DNA from: Vermamoeba vermiformis
Lineage: Eukaryota
Assembly: GCA_045837725.1 (NCBI GenBank)
Contig: JBEWZL010000109.1
Location: 62,001-126,000 of the forward strand
Direction of reading: 5' to 3'
DNA: 64,000 bases
The position numbers and the translations under genes are program-made. Of this stretch, positions 193 through 57,400 are shown piece after piece. A model generated the notes under the pieces. It did no database searches, was not told where the DNA came from, and was given only the letters and a program-made list of their open reading frames with translations. Numbering within the stretch: position 1 is the first letter of the stretch; every line of letters begins with the position of its first letter.

Positions 193-368
193 TCTTCAGT
201 GTTGTTGTTCTGTTGATTTTCAAAATAAGTTTTGGATGTCCAACAACGCACCAATACATATGCTGAGTTCGGGTGAACCGGTGAGTTTTTATTATACAGG
301 CGCACTAAGTATTCAGATGTAACTGAGAAAAATCCGAATAATTAATAATGCGGATGCTGACTCGTCCG

Positions 369-3300
369 TCAAACCAGCTTCTTTTGGGCTCTTGCCTTGG
401 GCTTCTTCAAACCCTTCGGTCTGAACTTGCACGCTTGTTTCAAGATCAAGTTGCCAGTGATGTACTCCATGCAGTACATGCACGGTGAGTTGACGTCGCA
501 CCAGCTCAAACGCTTGATGCCAGCTTTAGTCTTGCGCGAGGGCATGCCATTAGTGCCGAGCATGTCTGCAATGTTGACGTCGCTCGAAACAGCCTCGTTG
601 AGGTTGACGATGTTTTCTTTGTCGTCCACCGCGCCGTTACTGCGCAGAGACCGCTTGACGCGCTTGTTAGGCTCGTAGCTGCCGTCAACGTCATCTTCTT
701 CACGCTTTCGACGACGACCAGGACCGGTAGCCGCGCGAGGTGCAAGAGGCGTAGCAGGCAACGAGACAGACATCTTGAGCGGTGTTGGGACTGCCAATGA
801 GTTCGAAGTCTTTGAAATGGTGTGATCCTGCACAGCTCCTGAGTGAGCAAAGTCGGACTCGGGACCGCCTCGGAAGTACCGAGTTTCGATCTTAGTTGTG
901 CCGATCTTCGTCTTGTTCTCAATCTGAACTGTGATGGTCACCAACTTCTCGATCATGTCCTCATCAGCAGGCTCCAAGTCAACTTCCATGTCTGACTCGC
1001 TGCTGGAAGGAATGTTCGGCACAGGCTTGGACAAGCCATCTTCAGGCAATTTCTCGTCAGTGGCGAGCAAGGACGAAGTCGAACTATCCTTGAGCTCCTC
1101 TGTCTTGATCTTGACGTCGGTGGCATCGCTCGAAGACTCGCTGACCTCACTAGTAGCGTTCAAGTCGATCTTGCTAATGTCCACCAACAATTGTGCTTCT
1201 TCAGGCTTTGCCTTGCTCAACTTGGCACGCATCTTAAAAGGCAAGCGGCGAAGGTTACCGTGTTCGATGAACGAAAGGGATCCGTCATTTTCGCTAGTGC
1301 TGTTTTCAGTGTTGTTATTTACATTGCTGTCGATACTGCAGTTGCTGTTGCTGTTCTCGATCTCCATCTCGTTTGATAGAACAGTAACTGTGTTACTCAA
1401 ACGAGTGGGCTCGATCTTGATTGGAGTGGCAGGCAACGACCAAGGCTCTTGCTTCGGAGGGACACGTGACTTTTGAAGCAGTTTTCTTCTGGTCTCAAAC
1501 TTTAGGGAAGCTAAAAATAGGTCGTAAGATTCTGATAAACTAAAATTAGTAAAATCGTTTGAAAACTTACGATAAGTGACGTGGATCTTGAGAGTCAAAG
1601 TGGTGTTGCCTTCAGAATCTGTCTCTTCATTGTAGTGGTGCGGATCATCTTCAGGAACGCAGAAGATGTTGTCCTCTTCGACAGGCTCATTGCTGTTATT
1701 ATTTACAACGATCGATTCGGGTTCTTCGACCGGTTGCAAAGGCAGTAAGTCACCAGAGCTGTTCAGATCCAGGGAATCGCTATTTACAAGTGAATCTTCT
1801 TTCTTTGGCGACGAACTGCCTTCGCAAGTCGAGAGCGGGGTGGTCATTGCATCGGAGGGGCGAGTAGCACTTTCAGAAGTGGTTGTCGGACGCACTTCCG
1901 AAGCGTTGCTGTTCTCAGATTTTACAATCTCTGATGCAGGGGTATGTACAGGGGTAGGGGATGGGAGTGTAGTGGTTTCGGTAATAAGGAGGGTGTTGTC
2001 TTCGTCGGTTGCATCGATGATTTCACGAGTTTCTTCTTTGATGATAGGAGCCAAGATCGGGCGTGAATCTGCGGCGAGTTGGATTGGTCTAGGAACAGGA
2101 ACGTCTGTCATAGCAACATCAATATCAGAATGATCGCTGCTATCAACGAGAGCGCTCCTCTTTCCTCGACTATTTTCAACGATGAGGTCGGTGATCTTGC
2201 AACTAGTTTGTGGTTTCAGATGATTGCTTTCAGAAACAAGCAAGAATTTGTAACGGAGGTTGCCATCGGGACCTTTCTCGCGCCAATAGAACTTGACTTG
2301 ATAAATGCCATCATAAGTCCAGCCTTGTTGAGGAGCAAATCCAGAGTTCAACTGGCTGCTGCGAACCAATCTCAAAGCAATCTTCTGCTCGTAGTTTGTT
2401 CGCAAAGCCTTGTTGTAGTGATTGTCCATCGACTGGTGCTCAAAAGGCGTTCCATTTCTGCGTCGACCTCCACATCCAGTATAGACGACTACTTTGCCAA
2501 GGTCAATGTCTTCACCGTAGCCGCCGCTCATCAATACAGACTCTGCTCCCTTCTTAGAGTTGCCGCATACGCCACCTAAATACGATCGATCAGAAAATGT
2601 TAGGGTTGCCAGACTTCAAAGAGATCTGTCAACGTGAAGAGGTTGATAGAGATCCCGATTGCGGCATCATACCGATCGGCTTTCTATGAACAGCTTTAGT
2701 CCATAATTCCGCGCGCTGCATAAAGCAGGCTCCCTCTTTATATTCGATGTTGCCGTAAAGCTCTTTCACTTAAAGAGAGAAATTTTAACATAGAAAGGGA
2801 AACTAGAAGATACTAATCTCTAGCGCGATTTGTTGACTTTGAAACTATATATAGAACTACTAGGGTAACTACCTTTCAGACGAGTAGCACTAAGTTGCTG
2901 ATATTCCTTCGCAAGGGCCACATCTCGTGCGATCCGATCTAACGCAGCTTCATTCACTGGAACGAATTCTAACGAATAATACGTTAGATAGTGCATTCAT
3001 ATACTATTTACATGAGGCAGTGCTATTGTTGTTGCTTACTAATAATGTTACGGAAAGTAAGGTTGATTCGGATGCCCTCTTGGTTTCTGACTTTCGGGAC
3101 GCAGTGTTCGTAGTACTTTTGCACTATACAAATGCCGTTAGAGCAGGTTTACGACGGAATAAAAGCTCCGCGGTGAGGTATTTAGTTCTAAAAATAGCTG
3201 CGTCAAATCCGCTAAGTACCTTCACCGAACATAAGCAGCAGAGTGCCGTGTTCCAAATTTACGAACTTCTTTTCTTCTGTCAAGCCACTTCCCTTCTTGG

Positions 3301-4365
3301 GCCTCAAGAAAAACCTGCGGGTCCTACACCAAACAGTTAAAAAGTGACTGACGTCGGGTGAGATTTAGATTTGTATCAGAAAATCTGTTTCATGGATTGT
3401 TCGAGTAATAAAACGAGTACTTACGCTCCCAAAGATAACGAGGCAATCACAGATTTCTCACCGAGAGTCTAAATACAAACACTAGTGAGTGGTTACCGTT
3501 GCACGATCGGCTCGGGTGGAAAGTTCGCGGTCTCTTGCACCCCCGTTTTCAGGTAAATTTAAAGTCGCAAGAATGGCGCTTAAAGCGCGAATATATTTGA
3601 TATAAAGATCATAGATAAAAAGCAAGGCAAAGCCGTAACTCCGGATCGCCTTTTTGACCGACTTACATCCTCATCGTCTGAGTGCCAATTCATGTACATG
3701 TTTCCGTCGTCATACCGATTGCATAGGCACGAGTTAAATGGGCTGTTTGTTTCCTTCTCAATGAGTTGCTTAATCTCAGCAAGTTCGTTTGTCCAAGCGA
3801 TCGGCTTGCGAGGTATTCTTGAATAAACGTAATTGCACCCGTCTTCACCATACCAGGCGGTTTTCCTGGGCTCTAAAACAATGAAACAACGTTAGATAAC
3901 CGTAAGAGGACGCTTAGACAAGCAACACGGGAGAAGTTAGCGCTTTTTTTTGAAAATAAAAAATTAATAGGCAAAAGAGATTACAAAGCAGTTATTAATT
4001 GATTGAAATAGATAACGTATCGATACCCTAAACCAAGACCCATCGTAGGGTGCATTTGCAAAGGGAATCGATACAATAAAAGCGAAGATTTTTCGATCTG
4101 CACATCTGAAACAAAAGTAAGAATAGGAAAACAGCCGCAGATGAGCTTGCCACCCAAATGTGGGGCTTATCTCACCTAAAAAAAGCTGGCTCCACATCCG
4201 AATAGGCTTTTGCTGCCATTCTAAGCCCGTATCAAACGAGTTGAGGAAACCCGAGAGTTTTTCAGGATTACCCTCGCAGATCCGCTTGTAGAGAATAAAG
4301 CAGCCTGGGTGTCCTAATTCCAGACGATTCCAGCTGGTATCTTGTAGCAAGTGGTTGTTCTCCAT
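369..4365 (-). CDS. AlkB (ALKBH2/3-like) 2OG-Fe(II) dioxygenase fused to an SRA/YDG domain, long low-complexity linker and C-terminal CXXC-like Cys motif
   Basis: Exons 4365-4176, 3872-3667, 3468-3425, 3323-3220, 3123-3040, 2968-2873, 2768-2673, 2575-369; all GT-AG and phase-compatible. AlkB motifs EPRKTAWYG, FNSCLCNRY, WHSDDE, IASLSLGATRRF, YEHCVPK, RINLTFR. SRA motifs VHRKPIGGVCG, SVLMSGGYGEDID, YTGCGG, YDGIY. Confidence 0.88.
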
Positions 4366-4963
4366 TGCGTGAAAACAGAAAAATAGCGGCGTGCACGTCA
4401 CGTTTTTTTTGGCCTCCCCGTTTTTTTGGTGGTGAAACTCACTTTTATAAACTTTATTCATCGTTTTTTGTGTTCCCTGATTGCCTTTTGCCCGGGTCAA
4501 CTGTGCACTAACATCGCGACGCCGCTGCGAACATTTTCATATGCGATAATCCGCTCAGAACCATGGGGTAAGCGAGTTTTCTCAAGTGAGCGGCTAAGTC
4601 GCCACGATCCGCTCAATAATTACAGACAATACGGAGCAAGGGTTTTGCATTTTTTTAACGTGGATATTTTTTTTACACATTACTTTACGGGGTCATGAGG
4701 TTTTGGCAGTGTCCGCCTTCGTCAAGACTTTAATCTTCCGATTCGGCTCGAAGATGGCTAGATTGAGGAACTCCGGGCTTCGATACGAAAAATTATTTCG
4801 GGGCCATAATTTTTGGAGGGTGTTGTAGTCACTTACGCGTTCAGATAAAGAATCGAGACGAAAAAGCGAGAAAATCGTCTAATTTTTGGGCCGTTTTTTT
4901 AGGCCTGCTATTTCAGCATGATTGGCATCGATTGGTGAGCTATTCCGTCATTTTGTATTTCTC

Positions 4964-9854: not shown

Positions 9855-11682
9855 TTACAGTTCAGTTTTAGGATTCGAGTCTCCACCGCGCAACATTGGC
9901 AACACGGAGAGCTTGAAGTAGTACCAGCCAATCAAGAACAGCACCACCATCACGAAGAAGAGCACGGGCTGGAACAAATGAAGGTTGAGCGGTTCGATGT
10001 TGATGAAAGCACGAATGCGTCTGATGGCTGGCGTGTTGACCTCGAGGGGCGGGCAATATTCGCCAGGACCGTACACGAGCCACTGATCTCCTGCTTTGTG
10101 CACTTTGCCCTTGTCGTCACGGAACTGTTCGCGAGCACTGACCCAAATCGCTTCTTCAGGGCTCAACAGAATGACTCGCTGCACAACACCACTCTCGAGT
10201 GCTTCACCTGGCTTCAAGAAGAAGGCGATACTTTGACGCTTGCCGTCGATCACTTCACCACGCACTAACTTTCTGACTCCCAATTGAGGCTTGCCGTCTT
10301 CACCAACAGGGATTGACAATAACACTAGGCAAAGTCAGTCCAAACTATCCAAGCTTAGATCCAGCAATTGAGGTACGTACCAGTAGCTCTGCTCATCGAC
10401 AATAGTTATCTTCACTTGTTGCGTGACTTCTTCATTGACGTCAGGGATGTAGGCCTCGCTGACGTCTTTAGTGACCAACCTATTTGCAACAAATGGCGTT
10501 AGTCATGATAATTTTCAATTGCCACGTCAGATATTTTGTTCGGTTCACTGAACCATTTTCACTGAACGCTTACCATTCCTCACCAGCACGACGAGACACG
10601 CCTCGACTGTCAACGAACGTTCTCTTCGCCTTCAAATGCAAGCTACAACTGCGCGTTAGAACAACACAAAGCTGACGTCAGACAATTGTTGCACACTTAC
10701 GCATTGACGTCGGTCAAAATGTACGCGTTGACGACCTCCACGACGACTTCATTCACGTCAGGCAAGTACGCGCCTTCTTGTTTCACGAGCCACTCTTCAC
10801 CGGCCTTGCGCTTGACTCGTTGGTAATCCACGCAGTCGTCTTTAGCTCGCAGTTTGAGGGCTTGATTGGGCTTGAGAATGATGGCGCGCACCGTGGCCAC
10901 GATTTCAACCTCGGGCTGCGGGTAATAGGTCTGCGGGCCTTTAAAGTGCCACTCTTCACCTGCACGACGGAAGGCTTTGGCGTAACGATCTTCAAAGTCG
11001 CGCTTGGATTTCAATTTCAGCGCGGTGTACTCTTCGACGATTTGTAGCGGTTGAATGTTGCCTTCGAGCTTTTCACCTGGATAAAGAGGAAAAGGATCTT
11101 GTTCAAATCTGATCTCTTGGTCTCCGTGGCGTAATCGAGCTTGTCCGTATTCATCCATAAGCTAGAAATTGGTTAATTAATTTATAGATTGCAAGGAAGG
11201 GTAAAACGTACAACGATATCGCCAGATTCTCCGGATTTCTTCAAGACCGGGTTAGAAATAACGGCAAAGTGGCGTGGCGGAATAGTAATCATCTTTGCAG
11301 GGCCCAACACCACTATGAATATTAGAGCGTTAGATATTTTAAATAAAGACTGCGGTGACGTCAACAGTTCAATTATTTCTTTGAAAATACCATTAATTTT
11401 GATCAGTTAATACACCCAAATTTAATTATAGTCGAGCTATAATAATGGCTAATTTATTTGATTTTATGAACAATAAATTTTGAATTTTCTTTGTTATTTT
11501 TGGATGTCTTACCTTTCTCGTGTTCCAAGCATGTAAATGTTTTAGGACCAGTCTCTACTGTGACCACGTTTCTATTGGTGTCCAAAATATGCAAGTAATG
11601 GAACGGCGGAATTCTTGATTGAATGTTAACGACAAAGACCTTAGCATAGATCCGTGCTTGCTTACCTGATAATATAATCCAT
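9855..11682 (-). CDS. Major vault protein-like: repeats R1-R7 only, plus C-terminal transmembrane helix and KTEL end; apparent 1-nt frameshift at 10309-10311
   Basis: [49 protein letters not shown], three RxAGEEW repeats, GKPQLG, FFLKPGE, KAGDQWLVYGPGEY; ends FQPVLFFVMVVLFLIGWYYFKLSVLPMLRGGDSNPKTEL*. Confidence 0.9.
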
Positions 11683-16960: not shown

Positions 16961-18141
16961 ATGTTTCTCTGCAAGCGTCTGTCAATAATTATAAACAGAT
17001 CGAGGTGTTATACGGTATGAAAATAACAGCATGGATGTTAAATATAATAATAATTTACTTTTTTGAGTGGCGTTACGTAGTTGGCTGATCATAATAATAA
17101 AGCGGCTGACAGACCAATTTTTAGAAAATTTAGACACGTCGTTAATAATGATTAGTTATCATTAATACAGCTTATATTTATAGGCGCATCAGAGAAAATT
17201 ATCGAGCACTGTCAATAAAATTAACTGAAGCAAGTGGTGAAGAACGGATTCGATTAAAACGACGAGTACGCAACCATGTGAATCCATTCGCTAGTGCGCA
17301 TCAAGAGCCGTTCATGAGAGACAAGCCTTGGCCAGAGATATTTGAAGAGCCGTCAAAGCAGATCCATTTAGGTAATCGGACAGAAAGATCTGGACCTGCT
17401 TGCGAATCTTAGGGCTTACTTTCGTTAATAGACATTGGTTGTGCCAAAGGAGAGTATTTAGACGTGCTTGCTGCGGCTAGTCCTGACTGGTAAGTCGAGA
17501 TCCGACCGATTCTGTTGATAACTTTACTAACGATTAATGGATTGCAGGAACTTTATCGGCTTAGAAATACGCGAAGATTTAGTACCAAAAGCTAGAGCAC
17601 GAGGTAATAATATTATAGGGTTCATAAAAGAGATAAACTAATTTGGATCCAAATCTAGTGGCCAAAATGGAACGTCCTCTGCGCAACTTATACTTCCAAT
17701 ACGGCAATATTATGGTCGCAGATCAGTTTTTAGCTGATTTACCTGGCCCATTAGCTCGTGTATCAATTTTATTCCCGGATCCATGGTGGAAACGACGACA
17801 CGAGAAAAGACGCGTTGTACAGCACGATAATTTGAATATTTTGGCTAAATATATGGCATCTGGCAGTACATTGTATTTTGCTACTGGTAAGGACTCTATT
17901 CAGCCTCGTGTTCTGGCAATTTATTTTTCAATTCATTTTGATGCTCAATTAAATTTGTTTTGTAGACGTTGAAGAGACTTGGAATAATGGAATAGAAGTA
18001 CTAAATAGCAATACAAACTTTGAGTTAATACCTGGACGTAATTGGCAAACAGACTTTCCGGATGTACTCACCAGTTTTCATCGCTCGTTCTTGCAAAAGC
18101 AGATCAACTCTTGTGCATTCAAAAAGAAAGATAATAAATGA
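16961..18141 (+). CDS. trmB: Bacterial-type tRNA (guanine-N7)-methyltransferase TrmB, probably organellar
   Basis: RVRNHVNP, HLDIGCAKGEY, NFIGLEIR, VSILFPDPWWKRRHEKRRVV, LYFATDV; basic N-terminal extension MFLCKRLSIIINRSRR. Confidence 0.88.
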
Positions 18142-38553: not shown

Positions 38554-40204
38554 ATGGAGTACACTAAAATCGACTTGGAAGACGGCAGCAATGCTGAACT
38601 GATCGATCTCAATCGTGCAGCAAGCACTCCAAACGCAGATTTGAAGTCTATCAAACGCGACACCCGTGACCTGCTTCGTCTGCTCGAATCATCGACTTCG
38701 CCTACTGTTGGTATTATAGACGTGTCGCACAGTGGCTGGGTATATCGCAAGAAACTCAACGGCGAATGGAAAAAATACTTTTGCCATCTGGATGGAAACC
38801 AATTGTACTTCTTTGACCATCCCGGCGTAAGTAACATTTTAACAATATTATACTATACTTGTGTGATATTTCCCGAATTTTTACTGAATTTTGAAGCGAA
38901 TTTGAACGCGGATCAAAATTGTACTAACGGTCGTTGTAGCAAGCTGAAAAGAAACACGCTATTTTGGACGTGATATTCGTCAAGTGGATGAAAAATGACG
39001 ATAGTATGGCTATGCCAAGCATTCTCAGCCAAACAATGTGGTCTGCGTTAGTGATCGCTTCTGGCCGAATTGTCCGCCTTGGATTTGAAGACGAAGAAGC
39101 ATCCAAAGGCTGGATGGCTGCTTTTGAACATATGCACCAATCACGCTACAACCCAGGTGAAATTACCGATAAAGAAGACTTGATTAAGGTGAGTTTGAAT
39201 GAGCAGCAAATATTGATCGGGACTGAATTCGAACTTTACAGGAAATTGAACCGTTGGTCGCTGAGACTGAACGCCTCAATGCCCTTCGCTGGCAAGCTAT
39301 TGTATCGTCTTTGAAGCAATCTGGTTTCTTTGCCGGCTCCGATACAGAGATCAGACAAAAGGTACGCAGATCAGTCTTGAAATTTATAGGCTAATTAGAG
39401 TCTTATTATAGGAAGGATACTTAGAGCTATTGCGCGTCAAAGACAAAGGCGGCAAGAGTCGCAAAAAGTTGTACGTAGTGCTGTTCAAGGACTACTTGTA
39501 CATGTTCAAGCTGCACATGCCCACCAAGTTGACGAGTCCGCCGTACTCAATCATTGCACTGACTGCCATCACTGCTATTGACAAGGGCCTCGAGGACAAG
39601 TAAGACATATACCCTGCTTAGTATTGTCACCAAAGACTCATGACCCTCGTGCAGCTTCATCATCCAAACTGTCACGCAAACATTCGACTTTTCTGCCAAG
39701 CACGATGTCGCAGTCGCTGAGTGGATCAATGCTATTAACAAGCTCAGACCTGCTGTGCACCGTACGTCATTCCATCACGCGTATGATGACTTCGTTAACT
39801 AATAATGCTCGTGAACAGAAAAAACAGAGCGCGTGCAAGTGGACACGAAGGGCTACACGTACTCAAAGCCCCTTGAAGGCCGCATGACACTCGTTGAAAT
39901 ACGCCCTGACAGCAGCAAGAGCAAGTCACACAAGATCAAAGGCTCTCGCGTTGTGATTGGTCGATCAAACTCGGCTGGTATTGCCCTCGAGGATCCCTAC
40001 GTGTCACGCAGTCACTGCAAGATCAAGGTCTCGAGCAAGAACATTCCATTCGTCGTGGACTTGGGCTCGAACAAAGGCACCAAATTGAACGGCACGAAGA
40101 TCACTAAAGCACCCCTCAAGCCTGGTGACGTCATCAAAGTCGGCAAGACCACTCTGACTTTCACTGTCAAAGACGCCGATACTATCTTCTCGATCAGGGA
40201 CTAA
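38554..40204 (+). CDS. PH-PH-FHA domain protein
   Basis: HSGWVYRKKLNGEWKKYFCHLDGNQLYFF...WMAAF; EGYLELL...YVVLFKDYLYMF...WINAI; VVIGRS...VSRSHCKI...DLGSNKGTKLNG. Confidence 0.85.
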
Positions 40205-40397: not shown

Positions 40398-42427
40398 TTA
40401 AACAGCGTTGTTAGGGGCGTAGAGTTGACCATTGAACTCAGCACCAGCTTGTTGGTACATCGGGTTGTTGTTTGCACCGTCAATGGCTGGAGGAGCAGGG
40501 GCTTGGGCAGGAGCGTCAGCACGTGGCGCAAACTTCCAGACCAACAAACCAATCGCGACTGCAACAGCTGCAGCACCGACCACTGATACGACAACAGGCA
40601 CGACAATGCTGTCATTGCTGTCGTTGTTCGGAGTGGCAATTTGCTGGTCAGAAGGAGTGAGAGTGCTGGGAGTGATGATGACTGAGGGAGTGTTGGAGTT
40701 GATAGGGGAAGGCGTGACAACAGTGCTGTTGCAGGTCGAGTTGTTCGGCGAGAGACTCACGACCTGACATTGACCAGACCCCAAATCACAGACACCAATG
40801 TTGCAGTTGTCAGACAAGTGCGAGCAGACCTTCAACTTGCATTGATTGTTGCAGCAGTCATTGTCGACTTTGTTGCCGTCATCACACTCCTCGTTGTCTT
40901 GCTTGATGCCATCACCGCAGAAAGCTGCACGAACAAGCGTTAGATATCAGCGCCATCGAGCAGTACTATGCTATACTTACGAACAATAGGCACGCAGTCA
41001 GGAGTGGTAGCGTTGTTACCGCAAATACAGGTGTTACCGCAGCCGCAGAAACCAACACCGTTGCAGTCATTGGGGCACGAGGACTGAGGACCGCCACTGC
41101 AGATCAAAGGAGTGACGCGGTTGAGCACAGTTTGGAGCTCAGAGAAGCTGGGCGAGAGGAGTGCCAAGTCATCAGAGGTAGCAATTTCACGGAGTTGAGG
41201 CAAGTCCAGATTTCCAACTGCAATAGTCACAATGACAACACCATTGGCCTTCAATCGATCAGCCACACCAATAGGCTCAATACCCATATTGTTCTACAGC
41301 AAACATTAAAAGATTGGCCAAAGAAATAAAGATTTTGTTGCGTGCGTACCTCACCGTCACCAATCACCAAGATGAACTTGGTGACATTAGCACGACCACC
41401 GTCTTGCAATACTTTTTCAGCCTCTTCAAGACCCTCACCGAGAGCGGTGTACGAGTCAATTTTGACCATGTTGTCGAGTGCATTGAGTGCGGCTTGAGCA
41501 TCACCAGTCAATCCAATTTCGCGATGGGTGTAGTTGCTGAATTGAACGATGCCGACGTGAGTTGATTCGCCGATGTTGAGGAAGGTCAAAATATCACGAG
41601 TGAATGACAACAATTGGCCCCACTCGCCCTCTTCCACACTGATGGAGTACGAAGAGTCCAACAACAAAACGAGATCCATCACCCTGAACGCGAAAAGTCA
41701 GCAAATTATTCGCATATCTGCAATGACTAGTCAACTAACTTACTTTCTGCATGTAACGGTACCAGTGCACTCGGCAGGGGCGACAAACAACGCTGGATCC
41801 GGTTCTTCAACTACCACATTGCTCAACACAAAATCTTTGCCAGTTACTCCGTTGCTGTCAATCACTTGGAAGCGATACAATGCACCAGTAGAATCGATGA
41901 ACAATCGAACTACGAATGAAGCGGTCTGTGTGTTCGAGTATACTGTGCAGGGTGTAGTGGATTCGGAACCAACTCTGACTTGGCTGTCAATGTGTGCGCA
42001 GTCTTGCGATGAACCAATATAGGCCGAAGAGTTGGTCGTGAACAGAATGGGCTGCGCATCTTCGTAGAATGACGCGTCACACGAGTCACAAATAAAACTC
42101 TTTTGGTGCTAAAACTCAAAATATCAGAACGAATTTTATTAAACGTCTTATCTCGGATCTAAACCACCGCTACAGAACTAGACGTACCTTATTATAATCA
42201 ATAATCTCCGTAATATTGTGTCCGCCGCTCAAAGCGACATCCAATCTTTGCACGCCGTTGTTGTAGTTGTAGTAGATAGTACCAGTCGCCGCCACACTGT
42301 CAAAATATCCATCAAAATGTGCTTGAAATGCACTGGGCAGTGTTGGCATTGCATTTTGCAGCTGATCTGCGCGTACAATGTTAGATCCAAGCAGGATCGT
42401 CAAAAGAAGTAGTGAAAATGCTCGCAT
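40398..42427 (-). CDS. Type I membrane receptor: signal peptide, ependymin-like domain, vWA (MIDAS), Cys-rich repeats, TM, NPxY tail
   Basis: PTLPSAF...GTIYYNY...QRLD...PDPALFVAPAEC; DLVLLLDSSYSI, VGIVQFS, TALGEGL, LVIGDG; CPNDCNGVG, CGDGIKQDNEECDDGN; TM VVPVVVSVVGAAAVAVAIGLLVW; NNPMY. Confidence 0.85.
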
Positions 42428-44716: not shown

Positions 44717-45103
44717 TTATTCCGCGTCGAGGTCGATGTCGAGACCGTCGTCAGGCAAGCCGATTTGAGATGCCAGTTCGGGATTTTGACGGAGTTCCTC
44801 CATAGCTTGCTCTCCATTAACTAGAGCACGCTTCAAGGGGAAAATAAGCAAAAATGCCGCAGTTGATAGAATCCATATTAAATTGCTTCCAATTTTGAAT
44901 CCAATGAAAGCGAATTTAAATGTGTTTCTCAACACTGTGTTAAAATTGTTTCTGAATACGCCAGGGATTAAATAGGCTCCAATATTTTTAAGGCCACTGA
45001 CTGGCTTCTTCTTGGGCTTCAAGTCCTCTTCCTCCTCTGATGTGGATTCTTCTTCGCTGTAATCTGACTCGGAGTCATCGGCGTATTCCTTGACCTTAGG
45101 CAT
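44717..45103 (-). CDS. TOMM22: Mitochondrial import receptor Tom22-like
   Basis: Acidic N-terminus, then GSNLIWILSTAAFLLIFPL TM with the Tom22 W..ST...L..P pattern. Confidence 0.7.
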   Translation of the reverse strand: MPKVKEYADDSESDYSEEESTSEEEEDLKPKKKPVSGLKNIGAYLIPGVFRNNFNTVLRNTFKFAFIGFKIGSNLIWILSTAAFLLIFPLKRALVNGEQAMEELRQNPELASQIGLPDDGLDIDLDAE

Positions 45104-45565
45104 TATATAATATTTTTATATACGAGTTGTGGTTGTATTGACTTGTGTATGTGCAATCAACTCGCAACAAAAACAATTTGCGTAAATAATTGCAGTTGAG
45201 TTCACTCGGCCATCGCGCGGGGCAAAATGAACGCACCCGCTGCTTATTGACATTTGCAGATATAGCATTTATATGCGTATTAATGGTGGTTGCTACGATT
45301 TCAGTGGCTCGCAAACTTTTCAATAGATCCAGCGGCAGATCTAAGTGGATTTGCGTTAAATTTGCTAAGAAGCAAATCTTCTGCCGCTTTAGCGATCTTA
45401 CATTATGCAACATTGCTGTCGGCCAGGTGCTATTGTATTAAATTTCGTTCTCTTTGACAAGTACATTTCGATTTGAATTGATTTTTAACTTTACATATTA
45501 TTTTATGAAAACAGCGGCAGGATCTGACTCCAGTTCAAAGGTATTCTGATCAAATGGATCCTCTT

Positions 45566-49050: not shown

Positions 49051-50883
49051 ATGCAGTCGTTTGTAAAGAACTCCCTGTTTGCTCTGTGGTCCAAGAATGC
49101 TTCGCCATCGATAAAATCAAATTTGATAGACCATTCAAACACGCATAAAGATATTGTAAGGCTCGAGGACTCGGCTGAGACTTCTCTTGGACCAAATCTG
49201 CCTGTAAATTTGACATCCAGGTACAAACAAGAGTTTTGCGAGGTGAAAAAATTGGGCAAAGGTAATTAGATTTTTTAGTAATTAAAATGAATTACTAATT
49301 GAATATCAAAAGGCGGCTTCGGATCTGTTTTTCAATGTCGGTAAGTTCATTAAGTTCAGTCCAAGAAAACTCGTTTATTGACTATCTAATAACAAGGAAC
49401 TTCCTCGATGGGACTGACTATGCTATTAAGAAGATTATACTAGGCTATTTCTCGAATAATGAAGTCAAAAGAATGCAAAATGGTGGTTCGATCCAGTTGT
49501 ACGCGGATCCAAAAACAAGCGTCGTATGTTTTTTGCCCTTTTAATATCCATAATATTCTAATGCTAAATATCATTTTCAGAAACTACGCGAAGCAAGAAT
49601 AATGTCTCTAATGAAGCACAGAAATATTGTCCGATATCACCAAGGTAGATCCAGCCTTGAGACTAAGCACTAAACCAGGTTCTAATAAATATCATACTAT
49701 AGCGTGGCTAGAATTTGAAGAGATTCCCACAGCGAAAGAGCTCGCGGAAGAAGATGAAGATGATTCCGGCGAAATCATCGAATCACATCCGCAACGCGAA
49801 CTAGACTCCGCGGAGGATGAGTCGAGTGTGAGGAGTTATAGCTACAACAATAGTATCAATAGCGAGTATTTTAACGACATGAGCGGGTTGAAGCCTTCAA
49901 GGAATTCAGTTTGGTCAAATCCACCACTTACGAACGACTTCGTTTCAAAATATCAGCTGACACTAGTAAGTTGTCAAATATATATTTATGGACCTCAGTA
50001 CTTATATGGTATTTAGTTCATTCAAATGCAACTCTGTCCGCAGTACACAATGAGTGAATGGTTACAAAAAAGAGCAGCGGTAGATCCGCAAGAGAACTTG
50101 GAGATATTGCATCAGTTATTATTAGGCGTGGAGCATATACATCGCAAAGGATTTATTCATCGCGATCTCAAGCCTGCAAATGTGTTTATCACGTTTAACA
50201 ATAGACGTGTCAAGGTTAAGATTGGTGACTTTGGCCTGTCAAAACAACTGATTGAGGACCAGTCGACGAGTGACGCACAAACAGCGCGTGCCGAGAGACG
50301 AAAAACAATTGCAAAGTCATTAGAAATTGAGAATTCTTTGGCGGAGTTGAATGATTCAAACACGCTGGCTCGCATGAGTACCAAGTCCTCACCTGATCAA
50401 CACGCTGCGCATACAGCTGGCGTGGGCACGTACTTGTATACTAGCCCTGGTGAGTACCTATTCCTATTTCTGATATTAGTTGATGTCTGTTTGTTGACAC
50501 GTGTCACTTCAGAGGTGTTGAAGAGCAGTCAGTACGATCAAAGTGCGGACATATTCTCAGTGGGCATCATCTTGCTAGAGCTCTACAACAAGTTCCAAAC
50601 TGACATGGAGCGTGCTGTGTCAATTGTAAATCTGCGCGACAAGTGTCAAGTGCCCTCATTGATGCACCAGCACTACGCAGCTGAGAGTGCGCTCGTGCTC
50701 GAAATGACGCACCCTCTGCCGCACTCGAGACCTTCGGCTAAAGAACTATTGAGTCACCCGATATTCGCGTCAATGAACGTCAATAAAGACGACACAATCA
50801 AGCAACAAGACGAGATCATCAAACAACTGCAACGACAGCTGTCAATGATGCAAGCTAATAATCCCAGCACTGAACAACACTGA
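49051..50883 (+). CDS. eIF2-alpha kinase (HRI/PERK/GCN2-type catalytic domain with kinase insert); 5' end unresolved
   Basis: SRYKQEF, LGKGGFGSV, DYAIKKI, acidic insert, LFIQMQLC, IHRDLKPANVF, IGDFGL, HTAGVGTYLYTSPE, TDMER. Confidence 0.88.
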
Positions 50884-52579: not shown

Positions 52580-54270
52580 TTACAATTCTTCAATCATTGC
52601 GTCCTCAGGCACTCCATTGTTATTGTTAGTATTATTAGTATTGTCGTGCTTATTCTTGTTTTTCTTCGAGCTCTTGGTCAAGATCTGCTCCTCTTCCTCC
52701 TCCTCTTCGTCAACGAGATTAGGGACTTGCTTATTATCGGAGACACCGCGCTGCGATACTTCAATCTTCAGCAAGGCACGCACAGCTGTGAAATGATAGT
52801 TAAGGAATCAGAGGGTCATAGTCAAGGTACATTAAGTGCCACAAAAGCGTGTTGCAAAAAAAAAGGATACGTCCACGACAGATCGGACACTTGTTGGACT
52901 GATAACGCAACGTCTCTGCGCACTCATTGCAGAGGCACAAGTGACGACACGGGATCACGACTGAGTTGCGCGGGGCACTCAGACAAATAACACATTCTTC
53001 CGCGGGGTTCGTGTTGCCGAACTTGAGCTGTTCAATGCCGTAAATGTCGTGCACTACGTAGAAGGCGCCGTTGTACTGCACGATGAATTTGACAGTTAGT
53101 GACACGAAGTTCACGCTCGCACAGCTGTTACGTACCAAGATCTTTTGTTTGTACACTTTCAAGTCGACGTTGTTCTCGCCTGCCTTGACAATGCTCGCGT
53201 ACGTGATTTGCGTTGTGATCTTTTTCTCTTTGTTGTTCTCGGCGGCTATTAATAGACTCGTGAGTATACTGCCGTTTCAGGTACCAGTGTCACTTACGGT
53301 GTGTCGCTTCAATGAGCAGCACAACTGGGTGAATTTCTTCGTCGGCTTTGAAAGACCAGTCCTCCTCCTTGAACTGCGTCAAGTCCAAGTGATTGACAGC
53401 GGTGGTCGTGTACGTTTGGTTCAGTCCGCGGGGTTGTGGCTGTTTCGACTGCTCTTGCACGTCTAACATGGAGCGGTACCTTTATGAGGTCATACACGCG
53501 TTAATTTATGTCACATACGCCATGACACGAGTCACGGTATTAATTCCGGTATATTAAATTCAAATAATCTTATATTTCAAACTTACGATACTGATTTTCT
53601 GTCTTGATCCAAGATCTCCTTCGCCAAATAAAATATGCGAATAACGCATTCTTCTGTACAATCAAAATTGAAGGAAATATTATATACACCTAAATGAATA
53701 TGATCATTAGCGCATGTATGAAATTAACTCCGTTTGATGACGAATTGTTGGAAAGGGATCGATCTGGTACTCTGCGCATGTATTCGGGCAATTACCTTTT
53801 TCTTCCGTTGCGGTTAATTTAATAGTATTTTTGTGAATATTGACAGGGGATTTGATGCTAACAGTGTGGTTTAAAGGCGGAGTTAGATTTTGAAGGGTTT
53901 GGAGCGGCGCTTGCAAAACGCTCAAATCTGTTTGTATAATATTATAATTAATTTATAATCATTATAATTATTTTTCGGGTCATTATACTGCTAATAATAA
54001 TTGCAAATAATTATTCAATTTCGGATGTGTCACGCGCTTACTTGGAATAAAATCGTCTTCGCTGACTCTATCTGTGCCTAAGAAGAATTGGGGACCGAAT
54101 ATAAAATTAATATTGGGCTGATTTTCGTCCGCGCTCTGTCTATTCGGTTGTGGGACTGCAGGTGGACCTTGCTCGAGATCATTGTCCTCTTGCGGGTCTT
54201 GATTGGAGTCTGTATGGTGCAAGGGATCACCCTCTTGCGGGGATACATATTCACTTTGTCTGTTGCCCAT
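52580..54270 (-). CDS. MGRN1: MGRN1/RNF157/LOG2-like RING E3 ligase
   Basis: MGNRQS myristoylation motif, SIKSPVNIHKNTIKL, KVYKQKI, VHDIYGIE, ECVICLSAPRNSVVIPCRHLCLCNECAETLRYQSNKCPICR. Confidence 0.88.
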
Positions 54271-54427: not shown

Positions 54428-57400
54428 TTATTTCTTGGCAGTCTTGGCGAGTACTTGCCAGAGCTGGTTCATCTCCGCTGAATCTTGTTTGCGACGCGCA
54501 ACATAGCGCACAGTGTTGTTGAGCCACGCTTGATCGAACTGCGACTTGTCGACAAAGTTGAGCAAGTTGTTCACGAGACCTAGGATCTTCGGTGTGACAT
54601 TGGTGAGGACAATGGCGTGATTGATGAACTCGAGGGTGACACGTGCCAATTTACTCCTCACGGCAGGGTCGTTGACTTGCTTCAACTTGCCGAGCACTTC
54701 GAGGGTCTCGCGGATGACTGAGTCAGTGAGCTCTTGCATCTCTTTCTTAAAGTCTGTAGTGCCGCCGAACAGCTCGTCATTGCCCTCGACCTTGGGGTAG
54801 TGATACGGCAACTTGCGCTGTGCCTGTGCCGCGAGATAGGACAGAATGGCAATGTTGATTTCAGCGCGTGCTGAGCTAGTCAAGTCCCATTGATACTCGC
54901 CGAGGACTTTGCGCAGACCATTCACCAAGTAAAAAGCACCGATCTCAGGGTGACCGGGCATAGCGACCAAGCCTGAAATGAAGTACTTGACGAAGTTGAC
55001 CAGATCTGCCTCGGTAGCTTTTTGTTTCTTGTTCTCAGCTTCAATGAACTGCGGTACCTCTTGAATGAGTGTGATCGCAGCTTTGAACATCGATTCAGCT
55101 TGCGGCAAGGATTGGTTAACTGAAGCGAATATTAGACACGTGCTTGATGAATAATACACGCTCTACATACCCAAAGCAGCTTGTCCAGCCAACATGTACA
55201 AATACAACCGCTCGAAAGCATCGTCAAGTGAAGGGATTGAGATGTATGCATAAGCAATGCAAGCCTATTGGGAGGATTAATAAGGATTTATTTACGTGCT
55301 AAGCAGCGCCGAATACTTACGCGAACAAAAGACGAGGTCTCCTTAGTGTGCTTGCCCTTGACAATCTTCAGTGTGGTAACGGCGAGACTGCACACGCACT
55401 TGGCCAAGTAACTCTTAACTGCATCTAAATTGACAAAAGAGCTGCGGCATTCGCTGTAAAAGTTGAGTTGTTTCTCAACATCACGGCCAAAGTTGACCTG
55501 TAATGCCAAAGTTAGTATCATATTATATCTGCCTAGTGTCACGTACCTTTGAAATGAATGAATTGATCAACCGTGAAATTTGTCGAACATCGTCAGCAAA
55601 GCTCAGGGCGTTGATAGAGTTGTGCACAACTTTAGCGAGACCAAACATCGTGTTGATGGTGATAGTGTCTGAGACAGGTTCCTTGAGCTTGGCGAATGTC
55701 TCGAGGATGGCCTTGTTGACTTCAATTTGAGTGCTGCCGCGGAACAAATCGAGGAGCGGAATGAAGTTGTCCATGGCAAACAACTTGTTGAAGTCCATGT
55801 AATAGGACAAGATCTTTTGCACGATAGATTGAAGCTGTTGTTGAACTTCGGTGAACTTTCTGTCGACATTGAGGTGCTTGATAATGTCACCCAACAAAAT
55901 GTTTGTTTCTCTCGGCTGTGCGAATGTTAGAACAGAAGTACAAAGGAGTCAATAAGTACGTACCGAGAGGTGCTTGAGAGGGAACTCGATGAATACTTCA
56001 GCTACGGAGATGTAAGGCGTGATTTCCTCCATCTTCGTGACATCTTTCCACACTTCATTCAAAATCTTCAAGCGCACATCTTCTGCTGGTGTGCCGAGTG
56101 TCAAGTTCACACCGAGTGTGCGGTACAATTCGTGCTACACATTGTTAGTAATGCACCAAAGTCATGTGCACAGCGATTGAACTTACGCGAGGGAATGTCT
56201 CAACGTCAGCCTGTTTGATAAATTCAATAATGTTCGTGGCATTGGCGCAAATGTACCGAGGAGGGAACTCAGCGAGAATGGCGTTGAGCAGAATGCCGTT
56301 CTTGCTCTCTTTGTACTTGTCCAAAATTTGTTTCAACAACGACTCGGGGGCTTTGAATGCGAGGCAATGCAACAGCCAATCGAGTGCCGGTGTGAACAAG
56401 TCCAAGTACTGCAACTTGGTCAATCCTCGGCGTGAAATTTCTTTCTGCATCTTCTCAGTATCGAATGTCTAAAAAACCGGTATTAGCCAGTGTCATGTTT
56501 GCACTTAGTGACTTACGCTTTGATACATCATCAGGTCTTGGAAGGCAGTGTTCAAGTGCACTTTGAAGTTTGGTTCGACTTCTTGAGCCTTTCTGGCGAT
56601 GTAAGCTTGAGCAAATGTGGCAGCCAGAGGGTCAGCTGAGTTAACATTAGCAACGTTGTGTTATAATGAATAGCGTTGTGCTTACCAATGCCGCGAACCA
56701 TTCGACTCAACTTCTTAATCGTGTCTTGATACACATCATTTTCAATGAATCTGTAGCAGCTCAACAATGCAGCCTCGCAATAACTAAATAACAATTAGTA
56801 TTACTGCATGGTAACATCTAGCCAATGATAAGTGACGTACATTCGAGGCACGAGCTCTCTGATCGAATAAATCTTGTAAAACCAGTTCTTGCACAATTCT
56901 TTCGCTCCATCACCAACATCTTCAGCACGGAAATTCTCTGAGCATAGTAGTGTTAGACGCCATTCAAGTCCATTACATTGATAGACGCGTGTTCGTACCT
57001 TTCAAGGGAATAGGTGTGTCACCGTCGTAAATCGTTGATCTCTTGCGCAAACGATCGAACACCAAACGACCGAAGGTGTCTAAAATCTCAGTGATCAACA
57101 CGAACTTGCTCGGGAAGAATTGAGGCACTTCAACAGTGTCGCCCAACATTTTTGAGAGCTAAAAATGTCACGTTAGTGACACGTGATACTTCGACGGGAG
57201 CGGGTCCAAAGTGCTATTTTGACACGTTGTATGCGCGTACCTTGATGGCAGTTTTCAATGACTTGACACGCTTTTCAGTCTCCCACGTCTCAATCAAATC
57301 CTTGTGGAAGTTATCAATGCCCTTCACGTAATCAGCTTGCGTCACTTTCAACATTTTTGTTTCCTCGTCATCTTGATCCAATTGTTCCAGACGATGTTTG

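Follow-up and report, generated by a model that had tools for sequence, protein, structure and literature searches.

In the window, a stretch of 64 kb of DNA from a Vermamoeba-like amoeba, we identified one nuclear gene with nine exons which encodes an AlkB domain and an SRA domain in a single protein. The gene is located on the minus strand (4365..369), all introns are of the GT-AG type and in-frame splicing yields 988 aa. The protein is composed of an N-terminal AlkB domain (aa ~10–209), a linker exon of 32 aa, an SRA domain (aa ~242–395) and a Ser/Thr/acid-rich tail of ~590 aa, with no stop in the reading frame between the two domains. Codon positions of the catalytic and pocket residues were checked against the DNA.

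4176..4365, minus strand: exon 1, ATG at 4365-4363, aa 1-63; N-terminal part of the AlkB domain
3667..3872, minus strand: exon 2, aa 64-132; AlkB core with the HxD motif (H127 at 3684-3682, D129 at 3678-3676)
3425..3468, minus strand: exon 3, 44 nt, aa 133-146
3220..3323, minus strand: exon 4, aa 147-181
3040..3123, minus strand: exon 5, aa 182-209; end of the AlkB domain (H188 at 3106-3104, R200 at 3070-3068, R206 at 3052-3050)
2873..2968, minus strand: exon 6, aa 210-241; linker
2673..2768, minus strand: exon 7, aa 242-273; N-terminal part of the SRA domain
1571..2575, minus strand: exon 8 (whole), joined in frame to exons 1-7
2211..2575, minus strand: first part of exon 8, aa 274-395; SRA core
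2519-2517, 2510-2508, 2483-2481 and 2480-2478, minus strand: SRA pocket codons in exon 8 (Y293, D296, Y305 and T306, respectively)
1571..2210, minus strand: rest of exon 8, aa 396-608; Ser/Thr/Pro/acid-rich tail
1511..1570, minus strand: intron 8, 60 nt; RNA junction 1510|1571
369..1510, minus strand: exon 9, aa 609-988 and TGA at 371-369; tail and C-terminus

The initial annotation had joined seven small upstream exons in frame to the SRA open reading frame. All seven were found where it had placed them, with AG|..|GT borders, and the linker it quoted corresponds to residues 210-244 of our model. The extent it gave, 2240..4365, was correct at the start of the gene but not at its end, as the frame runs through exon 8, intron 8 and exon 9 to the TGA. 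Intron 8 is not visible on the ORF map because it is in frame and free of stops. The gene had also been called hidden, and fairly so: the unspliced gene calls P0002, P0003 and P0004 in the public protein collection begin at a Met within exon 8 and have PF02182 as their only domain. The full fusion is already present in the transcriptome-derived proteins P0006 and P0014 (the latter named 'AlkB' by its source).

Transcripts and selection

A transcript contig of 2647 nt (X3), spanning 670-4347, contains all eight junctions exactly as in the model. Seven of the eight are present in X1 contigs and six in raw RNA reads (X24) of a relative that is 90-95% alike. The junction of exons 1 and 2 (3872|4176) was seen in contigs of X1, X3 and X13, the last an RNA-seq library according to its record, and in five X24 reads; that of exons 4 and 5 (3123|3220) was seen in X1 and X3 contigs, and that of intron 8 (1510|1571) in X1 and X3 contigs and 21 X24 reads. 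The borders of exon 3 (3468|3667 and 3322|3424, cut +1) and of exon 6 (2968|3040 and 2768|2873) were likewise found in RNA. Splices from exon 5 to 6, 6 to 7 and 7 to 8 link the AlkB and SRA exons directly, both in contigs and in raw reads. The junctions 3040|2968, 2873|2768 and 2673|2575 predicted in the initial annotation are exactly those in RNA, and its proposal of one gene with one transcript, not two, is borne out by these junctions and by exon borders kept in the genomic contig of a relative (L001).

Transcript contigs stop at 4347-4379, near the ATG of exon 1, and no RNA depth was found upstream of exon 1 at 4428-4578. In X24, the depth reached 24 over the 3′ half versus 0-5 over the AlkB exons. 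This skew could be due to 3′ bias or to uneven mapping of a diverged relative, and it is also compatible with extra transcripts of the SRA domain and tail besides the fusion. Exon 7 is left out of some transcripts in relatives, and the first Met of P0005 (729 aa), a Trinity isoform of the relative, lies within this exon.

In L001, the exon lengths (190/206/44/104/84/96/96) are kept with AG..GT at each border, and there is no stop across 830 codons. In a blastn comparison with this contig, all nine exons matched, as did four of the eight introns. Exon 3 is 100% identical to L001 and L003, and exon 7 (92.7% DNA identity to L001) is second only to exon 3. The V. vermiformis transcriptome protein P0006 (986 aa) can be aligned colinearly to the model with identity at 874 of 986 positions (88.6%), and the N-terminus encoded by exon 1 matches both P0006 and P0014. 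The dN/dS values were 0.105 for the AlkB part, 0.028 for the SRA part and 0.143 for the tail; both domains are under purifying selection. There can be very little doubt that the gene encodes a real, expressed and selected fusion enzyme.

Properties of the AlkB and SRA domains

When exons were searched singly against Pfam (eight pieces), only exons 2, 5 and 8 matched and five pieces gave no match. Exon 2 alone scored 36.8 bits for 2OG-FeII_Oxy_2 (PF13532; cut-off 31.2, E 6e-9), and exon 5 alone weakly matched the end of this profile (164-194, E 0.0083). Exon 8 alone reached 86.3 bits for SAD_SRA (PF02182; E 2.3e-24, profile 32-145 of 148). Full-length P0006 gave 102.8 bits (E 3.7e-29) for the former family and, with exon 7 included, 106.3 bits (E 1.6e-30, profile 9-144) for the latter, whereas the SAD_SRA match of P0014, which is without exon 7, covers profile positions 29-144 only. 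Both domains named in the initial annotation are recognized in this way, and they are the only two families that Pfam finds in P0006 at E ≤ 0.1.

The motifs WHSD (H127, D129), YEHC (H188) and RINLTFR (R200, R206), which had been read from the DNA before, are present at codon level. The Fe(II) triad of H127, D129 and H188 is intact and shared by 155, 156 and 155 of 156 AlkB homologues, respectively. The arginines of the RxNLTFR motif, which have a role in 2-oxoglutarate binding, are both present (R200 and R206), and each occurs in 154 of the 156 homologues. These five residues as well as N202, Y117, R149 and Q183 represent the majority residue of 150-156 of the 156. With the metal and 2-oxoglutarate residues intact, the AlkB module is predicted to be catalytically competent.

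Searching the PDB by sequence retrieved ALKBH3 (2.3e-30) and ALKBH2 (1e-23); E. coli AlkB was not found at E ≤ 0.001. The NCBIfam equivalog of E. coli AlkB gave 26 bits, below its cut-off of 267. The AlkB model of P0006 (residues 10-210, pLDDT about 90-97) superimposes on ALKBH2 with Z 28.9 (rmsd 1.7 Å, 196 aligned) and on ALKBH3 with Z 28.1 (rmsd 1.8 Å, ~195 residues), with 31-34% identity in the superposition. FTO (Z 19.8) and E. coli AlkB (Z 18.3) are more distant. Judged by the modelled fold, the AlkB part is of the ALKBH2/3 type, with ALKBH2 and ALKBH3 tied; judged by sequence, it is closer to ALKBH3. The earlier assignment to this type, with intact catalytic residues, is in agreement with the PDB matches, the homologue columns and the fold. 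ALKBH3 is known for single strands and RNA. Human ALKBH2 and ALKBH3, proteins of about 260-290 aa, belong to the same Pfam family and have the same HxD...H triad and RxNLTFR motif, but they are without a reader domain, whereas the amoeba protein adds an SRA domain and the ~590-aa tail.

In a sequence alignment to 3dwh, UHRF1 residues Y466, D469, Y478 and T479 correspond to Y293, D296, Y305 and T306. As described in PMC5995235, these four residues hold the flipped 5mC in the pocket of UHRF1. The SRA part keeps all four in this alignment, from which a preference for 5mC is predicted. The amoeba domain belongs to the same family as that of UHRF1 (PF02182) but is missing its ~20-aa insert. The NKR finger of UHRF1 (N489, K490, R491) is not conserved, with T, P and a gap at these positions, and the position of S481 is occupied by Cys. 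By Pfam, no UBL, Tudor (TTD), PHD or RING domain was found in P0006. With the NKR finger and the companion domains missing, the protein falls outside the UHRF1-type class of hemimethylated-CpG readers. The PDB matches of the SRA part include UHRF1 (1.6e-17) and the restriction endonuclease TagI (4.6e-17), and all solved SRA relatives (UHRF1/2, SUVH4/5/6/9 and TagI) bind DNA. In the AlphaFold model, residues 250-400 have a pLDDT of 27-59 because the alignment is shallow over this part, which makes the modelled SRA structure unreliable.

Exon 6 is predicted to form the start of one long helix, which covers residues 216-246 in the P0006 model (pLDDT 61-88). The Ser/Thr/Pro/acid-rich tail encoded by exon 8 was modelled with pLDDT below 50, and the tail as a whole is probably disordered but conserved. 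It contains basic clusters at aa 874 and 891, which resemble nuclear localization signals and may serve as such. The extreme C-terminus is Cys-rich, basic and near-invariant (last 28 aa 96% invariant across six relatives).

The CpG observed/expected ratio over the window is 1.10, with all 16 4-kb bins at or above 0.95. There is no CpG depletion and hence no deamination footprint of heavy CpG methylation in the window. This, the missing NKR finger and the Cys at the S481 position count against a link to 5mC.

Related fusion proteins

This type of fusion is already known, because fusions of AlkBH3-clade and fungal AlkB proteins to SAD/SRA were described in silico in the text of Iyer, Zhang and Aravind 2016 (PMC4738411). 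The two domains are paired there as they are here, and that text likewise proposes that the reader directs AlkB to modified DNA; our comparison rests on its description, in which the domain order is not given. The fungal SRA is described there as divergent and possibly 6mA-reading, whereas the amoeba SRA keeps the 5mC-pocket residues. No fungal AlkB–SRA fusion was among the 150 and 120+10 matches listed in our protein searches, and no experimental test of the pairing was found in the literature. The host of the gene described here is an amoebozoan, not a fungus; the figure or supplements of PMC4738411 may already list amoebozoan examples.

A second amoebozoan, Clastostelium recurvatum, has a protein with the AlkB domain before the SRA domain in the same order (P0071/P0174, EukProt transcriptome). 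P0071 is 35% (SRA) and 31% (AlkB) identical to P0006 and differs by an extra SGF29-type Tudor domain (Tudor, AlkB and SRA). Its catalytic set is degenerate (D129E, H188Y, R200V, N202H) and Gln occupies the position of Y466, so that its activity may have been lost or changed. A tree uniting these two AlkB domains was not rejected (p-AU 0.89, 30.8 lnL above the quick free tree), but such an amoebozoan clade could be a long-branch effect because both branches are long. P0305 and P0309 (518 aa), from an environmental source, also combine this AlkB subtype with a chromatin reader, in their case a PHD finger N-terminal to AlkB; the SRA domain is absent and the distal His is Tyr. They match the 'AlkBH3 fused to PHD' noted in the text of PMC4738411, and in a 160-row tree the shortest path to a non-self row led to P0163, a member of their cluster. 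Among the matches listed, the nearest AlkB sequence relatives are ~200-aa AlkB proteins with 45-50% identity; the few named ones are bacterial or archaeal, together with the chytrid protein P0025.

Possible functions of the fusion

We infer that the protein most likely acts in repair or demethylation and is targeted to DNA that carries modifications. The SRA domain would dock on duplex DNA by taking up a flipped modified cytosine in its pocket, with 5mC as the likeliest base. Docking would hold the AlkB module, which resembles 3mC/1mA enzymes, beside that site, where it would oxidatively remove N-methyl lesions in methylated DNA. Taken as a whole, a real fusion with 5mC-directed removal of N-methyl lesions is a reading that we put forward tentatively.

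The AlkB domain might instead erase N6-methyladenine from DNA, with the SRA domain reading 6mA or merely anchoring the enzyme on DNA. Such a role is proposed in the text of PMC4738411 both for fungal AlkB-SAD(SRA) proteins and for members of the AlkBH3 and AlkBH5 clades that are fused to a DNA-binding domain, SAD/SRA among them. In bioRxiv 10.64898/2026.05.21.726589, 6mA is called ancestral and kept in many unicellular eukaryotes, and the absent CpG depletion is in keeping with a genome whose main mark is something other than 5mC. However, the fungal argument in PMC4738411 needs a divergent SRA, while the four 5mC residues of UHRF1 are kept here, and the nearest solved enzymes are the lesion-repair proteins ALKBH2 and ALKBH3, with FTO, which was crystallized with m6dA, far away. 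We therefore consider this possible but unlikely.

That the protein acts mainly on RNA (m1A/m3C in tRNA or mRNA, as ALKBH3 does), with the SRA/PUA-like domain binding modified RNA or tethering the enzyme to chromatin co-transcriptionally, appears improbable. ALKBH3 is indeed the top sequence match among solved structures, and for the fungal SRA version the text of PMC4738411 leaves a choice of 'RNA or DNA', but the two human enzymes tie by fold, every solved SRA relative binds DNA and the tail has NLS-like clusters. Slightly less probable again is a TET-like oxidase whose AlkB domain converts the 5mC located by its SRA domain to 5hmC, 5fC and 5caC. Although PMC6582317 describes oxidation of 5mC in vitro by ALKBH2, ALKBH3 and AlkB, the AlkB sequence here is indistinguishable from ordinary ALKBH2/3-type enzymes. 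Moreover, both domains would need a flipped base and could therefore not hold one 5mC simultaneously. Pfam at E ≤ 0.1 gave no TET/JBP catalytic domain in P0006.

We also regard as very improbable a sensor or neutralizer of modified foreign DNA from giant viruses or eaten bacteria, which would be analogous to bacterial SRA-nuclease restriction enzymes. Vermamoeba is described as a host of giant viruses, one of which is described as encoding a Dam-type methylase, the SRA domain matches TagI about as well as UHRF1, and the AlkB part matches the PADLOC candidate-defence model CARF_2OG (3.1e-38). The last match shows only a shared AlkB-type fold, however, and the gene, located amid housekeeping genes (vault protein, kinases, Tom22, Vps35), has eight introns and dN/dS values of 0.03-0.14, which is not an arms-race pattern; no relative of the fusion was found in viral contigs. 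An artefact, either read-through of neighbouring AlkB and SRA genes or a decaying AlkB pseudogene, is largely refuted despite the P0005 start in exon 7 and the lower X24 depth over the AlkB exons, since RNA junctions join exons 5 to 8, no stop separates the domains, exon phases are conserved in L001, the AlkB part has a dN/dS of 0.105 with all catalytic residues kept and P0071 shares the domain order.

For the 5mC-directed removal of N-methyl lesions, which we prefer, the text of PMC9246332 provides a possible rationale: DNMTs make 3mC, and the co-evolution of DNMT1/3 with ALKB2 suggests a 3mC cost of cytosine methylation. No genetic hint of this link between 3mC and methylation would be more direct than a natural protein in which the repair enzyme is welded to a 5mC-type reader. 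More speculatively, the protein might be a proofreader of cytosine methylation. The SRA domain would flip the parental-strand 5mC of a CpG and the helical linker would set the ALKBH2/3 module on an opposite or neighbouring 3mC made in error by a DNMT, so that reading of the mark and erasure of the toxic by-product would be one physical act. More broadly, there would be an old amoebozoan clade of reader-wired ALKBH2/3 enzymes (SRA, Tudor-SRA, PHD), in which those with drifted catalytic residues (P0071, P0305) would have become reader-only or changed their chemistry. We consider this extended version rather unlikely.

A compact construct of about 400 aa is suited to an in vitro test of the idea. 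The AlkB–SRA architecture is thus not confined to fungi, being present in at least two lineages of amoebozoans; in Vermamoeba, the fusion is under strong purifying selection and its active site is fully intact. Unspliced public gene calls truncate the gene to an SRA-plus-tail ORF, so that surveys based on them would miss the fusion.

Exon structure and transcription of the AlkB-SRA gene

All introns of the AlkB-SRA gene are bounded by GT...AG, and the spliced frame comprises 988 open codons.

Exons of the AlkB-SRA gene (GT-AG gene model)
4365-4176, minus strand: exon 1
3872-3667, minus strand: exon 2, reaching Pfam 2OG-FeII_Oxy_2 from the exon alone
3468-3425, minus strand: exon 3
3323-3220, minus strand: exon 4
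3123-3040, minus strand: exon 5, weak match to the end of the 2OG-FeII_Oxy_2 profile
2968-2873, minus strand: exon 6
2768-2673, minus strand: exon 7
2575-1571, minus strand: exon 8, Pfam SAD_SRA
1510-369, minus strand: exon 9, with the TGA at 371-369

The initial annotation had described the fusion as hidden, and the stop-to-stop ORF map indeed gives a sole long frame at this locus, 369..2615, which contains the SRA core. The three junctions, the linker peptide and the motifs proposed there recur exactly in the spliced model. The fusion itself stood, but not its end at 2240, as the frame continues to the TGA. When the exons were searched singly against Pfam, exon 2 cleared the gathering threshold of 2OG-FeII_Oxy_2 over profile positions 48-116 of 194 (E 6e-9, 36.8 bits), exon 5 matched the same family weakly (E 0.0083, profile 164-194) and exon 8 matched SAD_SRA (E 2.3e-24); five of eight exon pieces had no Pfam match in these single searches. 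The 60-nt intron 1511-1570 is stop-free and in frame, so that the ORF map runs straight across it, and the public ORF calls P0002 and P0004 retain its translated counterpart.

Twenty public sequencing runs share part of the window, the best of them about one third of the sampled words, and four (X1, X3, X13 and X24) were mapped onto window positions 200-4700. A single 2647-nt contig of X3 (670-4347) spans each of the eight junctions at exactly the bases of the model, all reading CT..AC on the plus strand; the junctions 3040|2968, 2873|2768 and 2673|2575, for which the initial annotation had suggested an RNA check, are thus crossed as modelled. Contigs of X1 cover seven of the eight, the junction 2575|2673 falling in the gap between two of them, and X13, an RNA-seq library by its record, yielded a contig spanning 3872|4176. 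X24 consists of raw paired RNA reads of a relative (345 of 436 mapped reads 90-95% alike) and supports six junctions: 1510|1571 with 21 reads, 2768|2873 with 6 and 3872|4176 with 5, as well as 2570|2672 (11), 2968|3043 (4) and 3468|3668 (4); in these last three, 1-4 letters at the joint are diverged. Both missing junctions sit where X24 has a depth of 0-1. In X24, the AlkB exons were covered less deeply than the 3′ half. The difference could stem from 3′ bias or, the relative being diverged, from uneven read mapping, and it is compatible with additional shorter transcripts.

Because contigs end at 4347-4379 and none of the four runs has depth at 4428-4578, the ATG at 4365 is the first in the transcript; an upstream in-frame ATG (~4460) lies outside it. 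Over the tail exons (700-2000), X24 reads showed loose ends at 733, 803, 819, 955, 1372 and 1972 and an 'opposite strands' joint at 795/955, probably caused by indels and diverged segments in the tail of the relative. Among proteins of relatives, the transcriptome isoform P0001 and P0014 both lack precisely the 32 residues corresponding to exon 7 (2673-2768). With this in-frame skip the SRA domain loses its initial strand and helix, and the Pfam match starts from profile position 29 instead of 9. The skipping joint 2575|2873 was not listed in any of the four mapped runs.

Active site and predicted base-binding pocket

The AlkB domain has kept H127, D129, H188, R200, R206, N202, Y117, R149 and Q183, each being the residue of 150-156 of 156 homologues. 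These counts were taken from a domain-only alignment because the full alignment, A1, misplaces the final ~20 residues of short AlkB rows; A1 also served as input for the structure prediction of P0006, a 986-aa V. vermiformis transcriptome protein. Among solved structures, ALKBH3 was the best match by sequence (2.3e-30), followed by ALKBH2 (1e-23), and no E. coli AlkB chain was found at E 0.001. Likewise, the score for the NCBIfam equivalog of E. coli AlkB stayed at 26 bits, its cut-off being 267. The AlphaFold model of P0006 is confident for residues ~10-246 only, with pLDDT of ~90-97 over the AlkB domain and 61-88 over the helix 216-246. The predicted AlkB fold aligned with ALKBH2 at Z 28.9 (rmsd 1.7 Å, 196 residues) and with ALKBH3 at Z 28.1 (rmsd 1.8 Å, 194 residues), compared with Z 19.8 for FTO and 18.3 for E. 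coli AlkB. As modelled, the fold leaves ALKBH2 and ALKBH3 unseparated; the earlier assignment as 'ALKBH2/3-type' was right, since both sequence and predicted fold come closest to these two enzymes. The closest sequences overall were AlkB proteins of ~200 aa with 45-50% identity, bacterial or archaeal wherever an organism was named, and a chytrid protein, P0025, is also near the domain. Residues 48-209 of P0006 matched the PADLOC model CARF_2OG (3.1e-38), so that candidate defence proteins of bacteria also contain this AlkB subtype, in fusion with CARF.

In the SRA domain, Y293, D296, Y305 and T306 align on UHRF1 Y466, D469, Y478 and T479 (phmmer, 3dwh and others). A passage of PMC5995235 describes, for UHRF1, a hydrogen bond of D469 to methylcytosine, which Y466 and Y478 sandwich, and a preference for cytosine through T479. 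Differences from UHRF1 are a Cys in place of S481, the occupation of the NKR finger positions by T, P and a gap, and the loss of the UHRF1 insert. The NKR finger is what makes UHRF1 prefer hemimethylated sites. Judged from this alignment, the amoeba SRA has a predicted canonical pocket for a flipped cytosine without the device by which UHRF1 senses the opposite strand. In the AlphaFold model of P0006, pLDDT was 27-59 over the SRA domain, and both SRA and tail stayed below 60.

Conservation and distribution of the fusion

A search with the SRA ORF yielded four proteins among 113 candidates, and one matched cluster stems from Vermamoeba vermiformis (EukProt transcriptome). Its member P0006 is colinear with the gene model (874 of 986 positions identical). 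Both families that the initial annotation had expected in the spliced protein are present in P0006, namely 2OG-FeII_Oxy_2 at 65-206 (3.7e-29) and SAD_SRA at 252-388 (1.6e-30). The unspliced gene calls P0002, P0003 and P0004 have their start Met within exon 8 and contain the SRA family only. The colinearity and the source of P0006 place the window in a Vermamoeba-like amoebozoan and not in a fungus.

Scanning metagenome contigs revealed genomic copies from a relative, L001 and L003. The first seven exons of L001 have identical lengths (190, 206, 44, 104, 84, 96 and 96), with AG..GT at each border, and its frame is open for 830 codons, as far as the contig end. By blastn, all nine exons matched L001, and of the introns only 1, 2, 3 (in part) and 7 (in part). 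Between window and L001, dN/dS (Nei-Gojobori) was 0.099 overall, with 0.105 for the AlkB domain (aa 1-209), 0.028 for SRA (242-395) and 0.143 for the tail (396-830); purifying selection acts on all three parts. We conclude that the AlkB-SRA fusion is a genuine amoebozoan gene that is both expressed and under selection.

The start of intron 1 (first ~155 nt, 4020-4175, minus strand) is ~94% identical to L001 and L003, whereas 45% of the synonymous sites in the AlkB exons on either side differ (pS 0.45); these contigs are near-identical to each other, so that the comparison covers two lineages only. Intron 1 as a whole has 85.7% identity, on a par with the exons. It matched no Rfam family, the segment folds with a z-score of -2.36, and the four runs had no RNA depth at 3975-4125. 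A conserved element with a regulatory role is one possibility for the segment, a small intronic RNA another.

A HMMER pass with P0006 over 1.84 billion representatives gave 10,249 matches at E<=0.001. Among the 150 matches listed, 144 are shorter than 300 aa and hence cannot hold both domains; the six longer ones are P0004 of the same lineage, the fusion P0071 and four with an AlkB domain only. The listed matches reach down to 119 bits, and since weaker fusions, e.g. those of fungi, would score below this floor, their lack among them is not evidence. P0071, from the amoebozoan Clastostelium recurvatum, combines SGF29-Tudor, AlkB and SRA and shows degeneration at catalytic positions (D129E, H188Y, R200V, N202H). 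In the PHD-AlkB proteins P0305 and P0309, the distal His is replaced by Tyr with an adjacent His. These proteins and P0071/P0174 of C. recurvatum may be inactive or have an altered metal site.

Both AlkB trees resembled a star, with 87 open branches out of 157 in one and 29 out of 47 in the other, and did not separate a bacterial from a eukaryotic-ancestor origin. The amoeba clade was placed weakly (SH-aLRT 84, unstarred) with the chytrid protein, PHD-AlkB and one other row; the cluster of a near neighbour, P0163, includes 518-aa PHD-AlkB proteins. A tree forcing the AlkB domain of P0071 together with the Vermamoeba type was not rejected (p-AU 0.89; its lnL exceeds that of the quick free tree by 30.8), which, because both branches are long, goes only as far as allowing a single origin.

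Possible substrates, genomic setting and C-terminal tail

The initial annotation had proposed an enzyme targeted to methylated DNA. We tentatively favour 5mC-directed lesion repair; in the most economical mechanism the SRA domain would flip a modified cytosine and so anchor the protein on DNA, and the ALKBH2/3-type module tethered to it would remove neighbouring N-methyl lesions. As reviewed in PMC9246332, ALKB2 co-evolves with DNMT1 and DNMT3, and 3mC is made by DNMTs. A tight link to 5mC is argued against by the CpG o/e of the 64-kb window, which is 1.10 with every 4-kb bin at least 0.95, by the missing NKR finger and by the leaning of the AlkB sequence towards ALKBH3.

Erasure of 6mA is an unlikely alternative; AlkB-SAD/SRA type fusions were proposed as m6A demethylases by Iyer, Zhang and Aravind (PMC4738411). 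Action on RNA substrates seems improbable, oxidation of 5mC itself slightly more so, and a role directed at foreign DNA comes after these. That the fusion is an artefact is hardly credible, with every junction crossed by one contig. Beyond PMC4738411, the literature searched contained nothing relevant on the AlkB and SRA/SAD pairing, no report of ALKBH3 with SRA in amoebozoa, no experimental study of any AlkB-SRA fusion and, for Vermamoeba, no informative work on 5mC or DNMT. The pairing has thus already been described in silico and the amoeba gene adds another case; its value is that of a clean, testable example whose active site is intact and whose pocket is predicted to be canonical.

The ORFs around the gene encode ordinary eukaryotic proteins, including kinases.

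Further features in the window (selection)
9858-11161, minus strand: major vault protein exons (Vault repeat domains, E down to 2.8e-30)
17637-17969: tRNA m7G-type methyltransferase exon
39815-40201: FHA
40943-41697: VWA
44720-45115: Tom22
50017-50880: protein kinase
52803-53276: RING
55526-55948: Vps35
60071-61313: myotubularin

These neighbours rule out a viral insertion, and no relative of P0006 or P0071 was found among viral contigs.

No Pfam family was detected in the tail when P0006 was searched. Residues 396-860 have a high content of Ser, Thr, Pro, Glu and Asp, and the tail carries five hydrophobic-K-x-E/D motifs, which we take to fit the SUMO-site consensus. Basic residues cluster at 874 (RRRKR) and at 891 (KRVKR), and both clusters resemble nuclear localisation signals. 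The last 28 residues are 96% invariant across six relatives.
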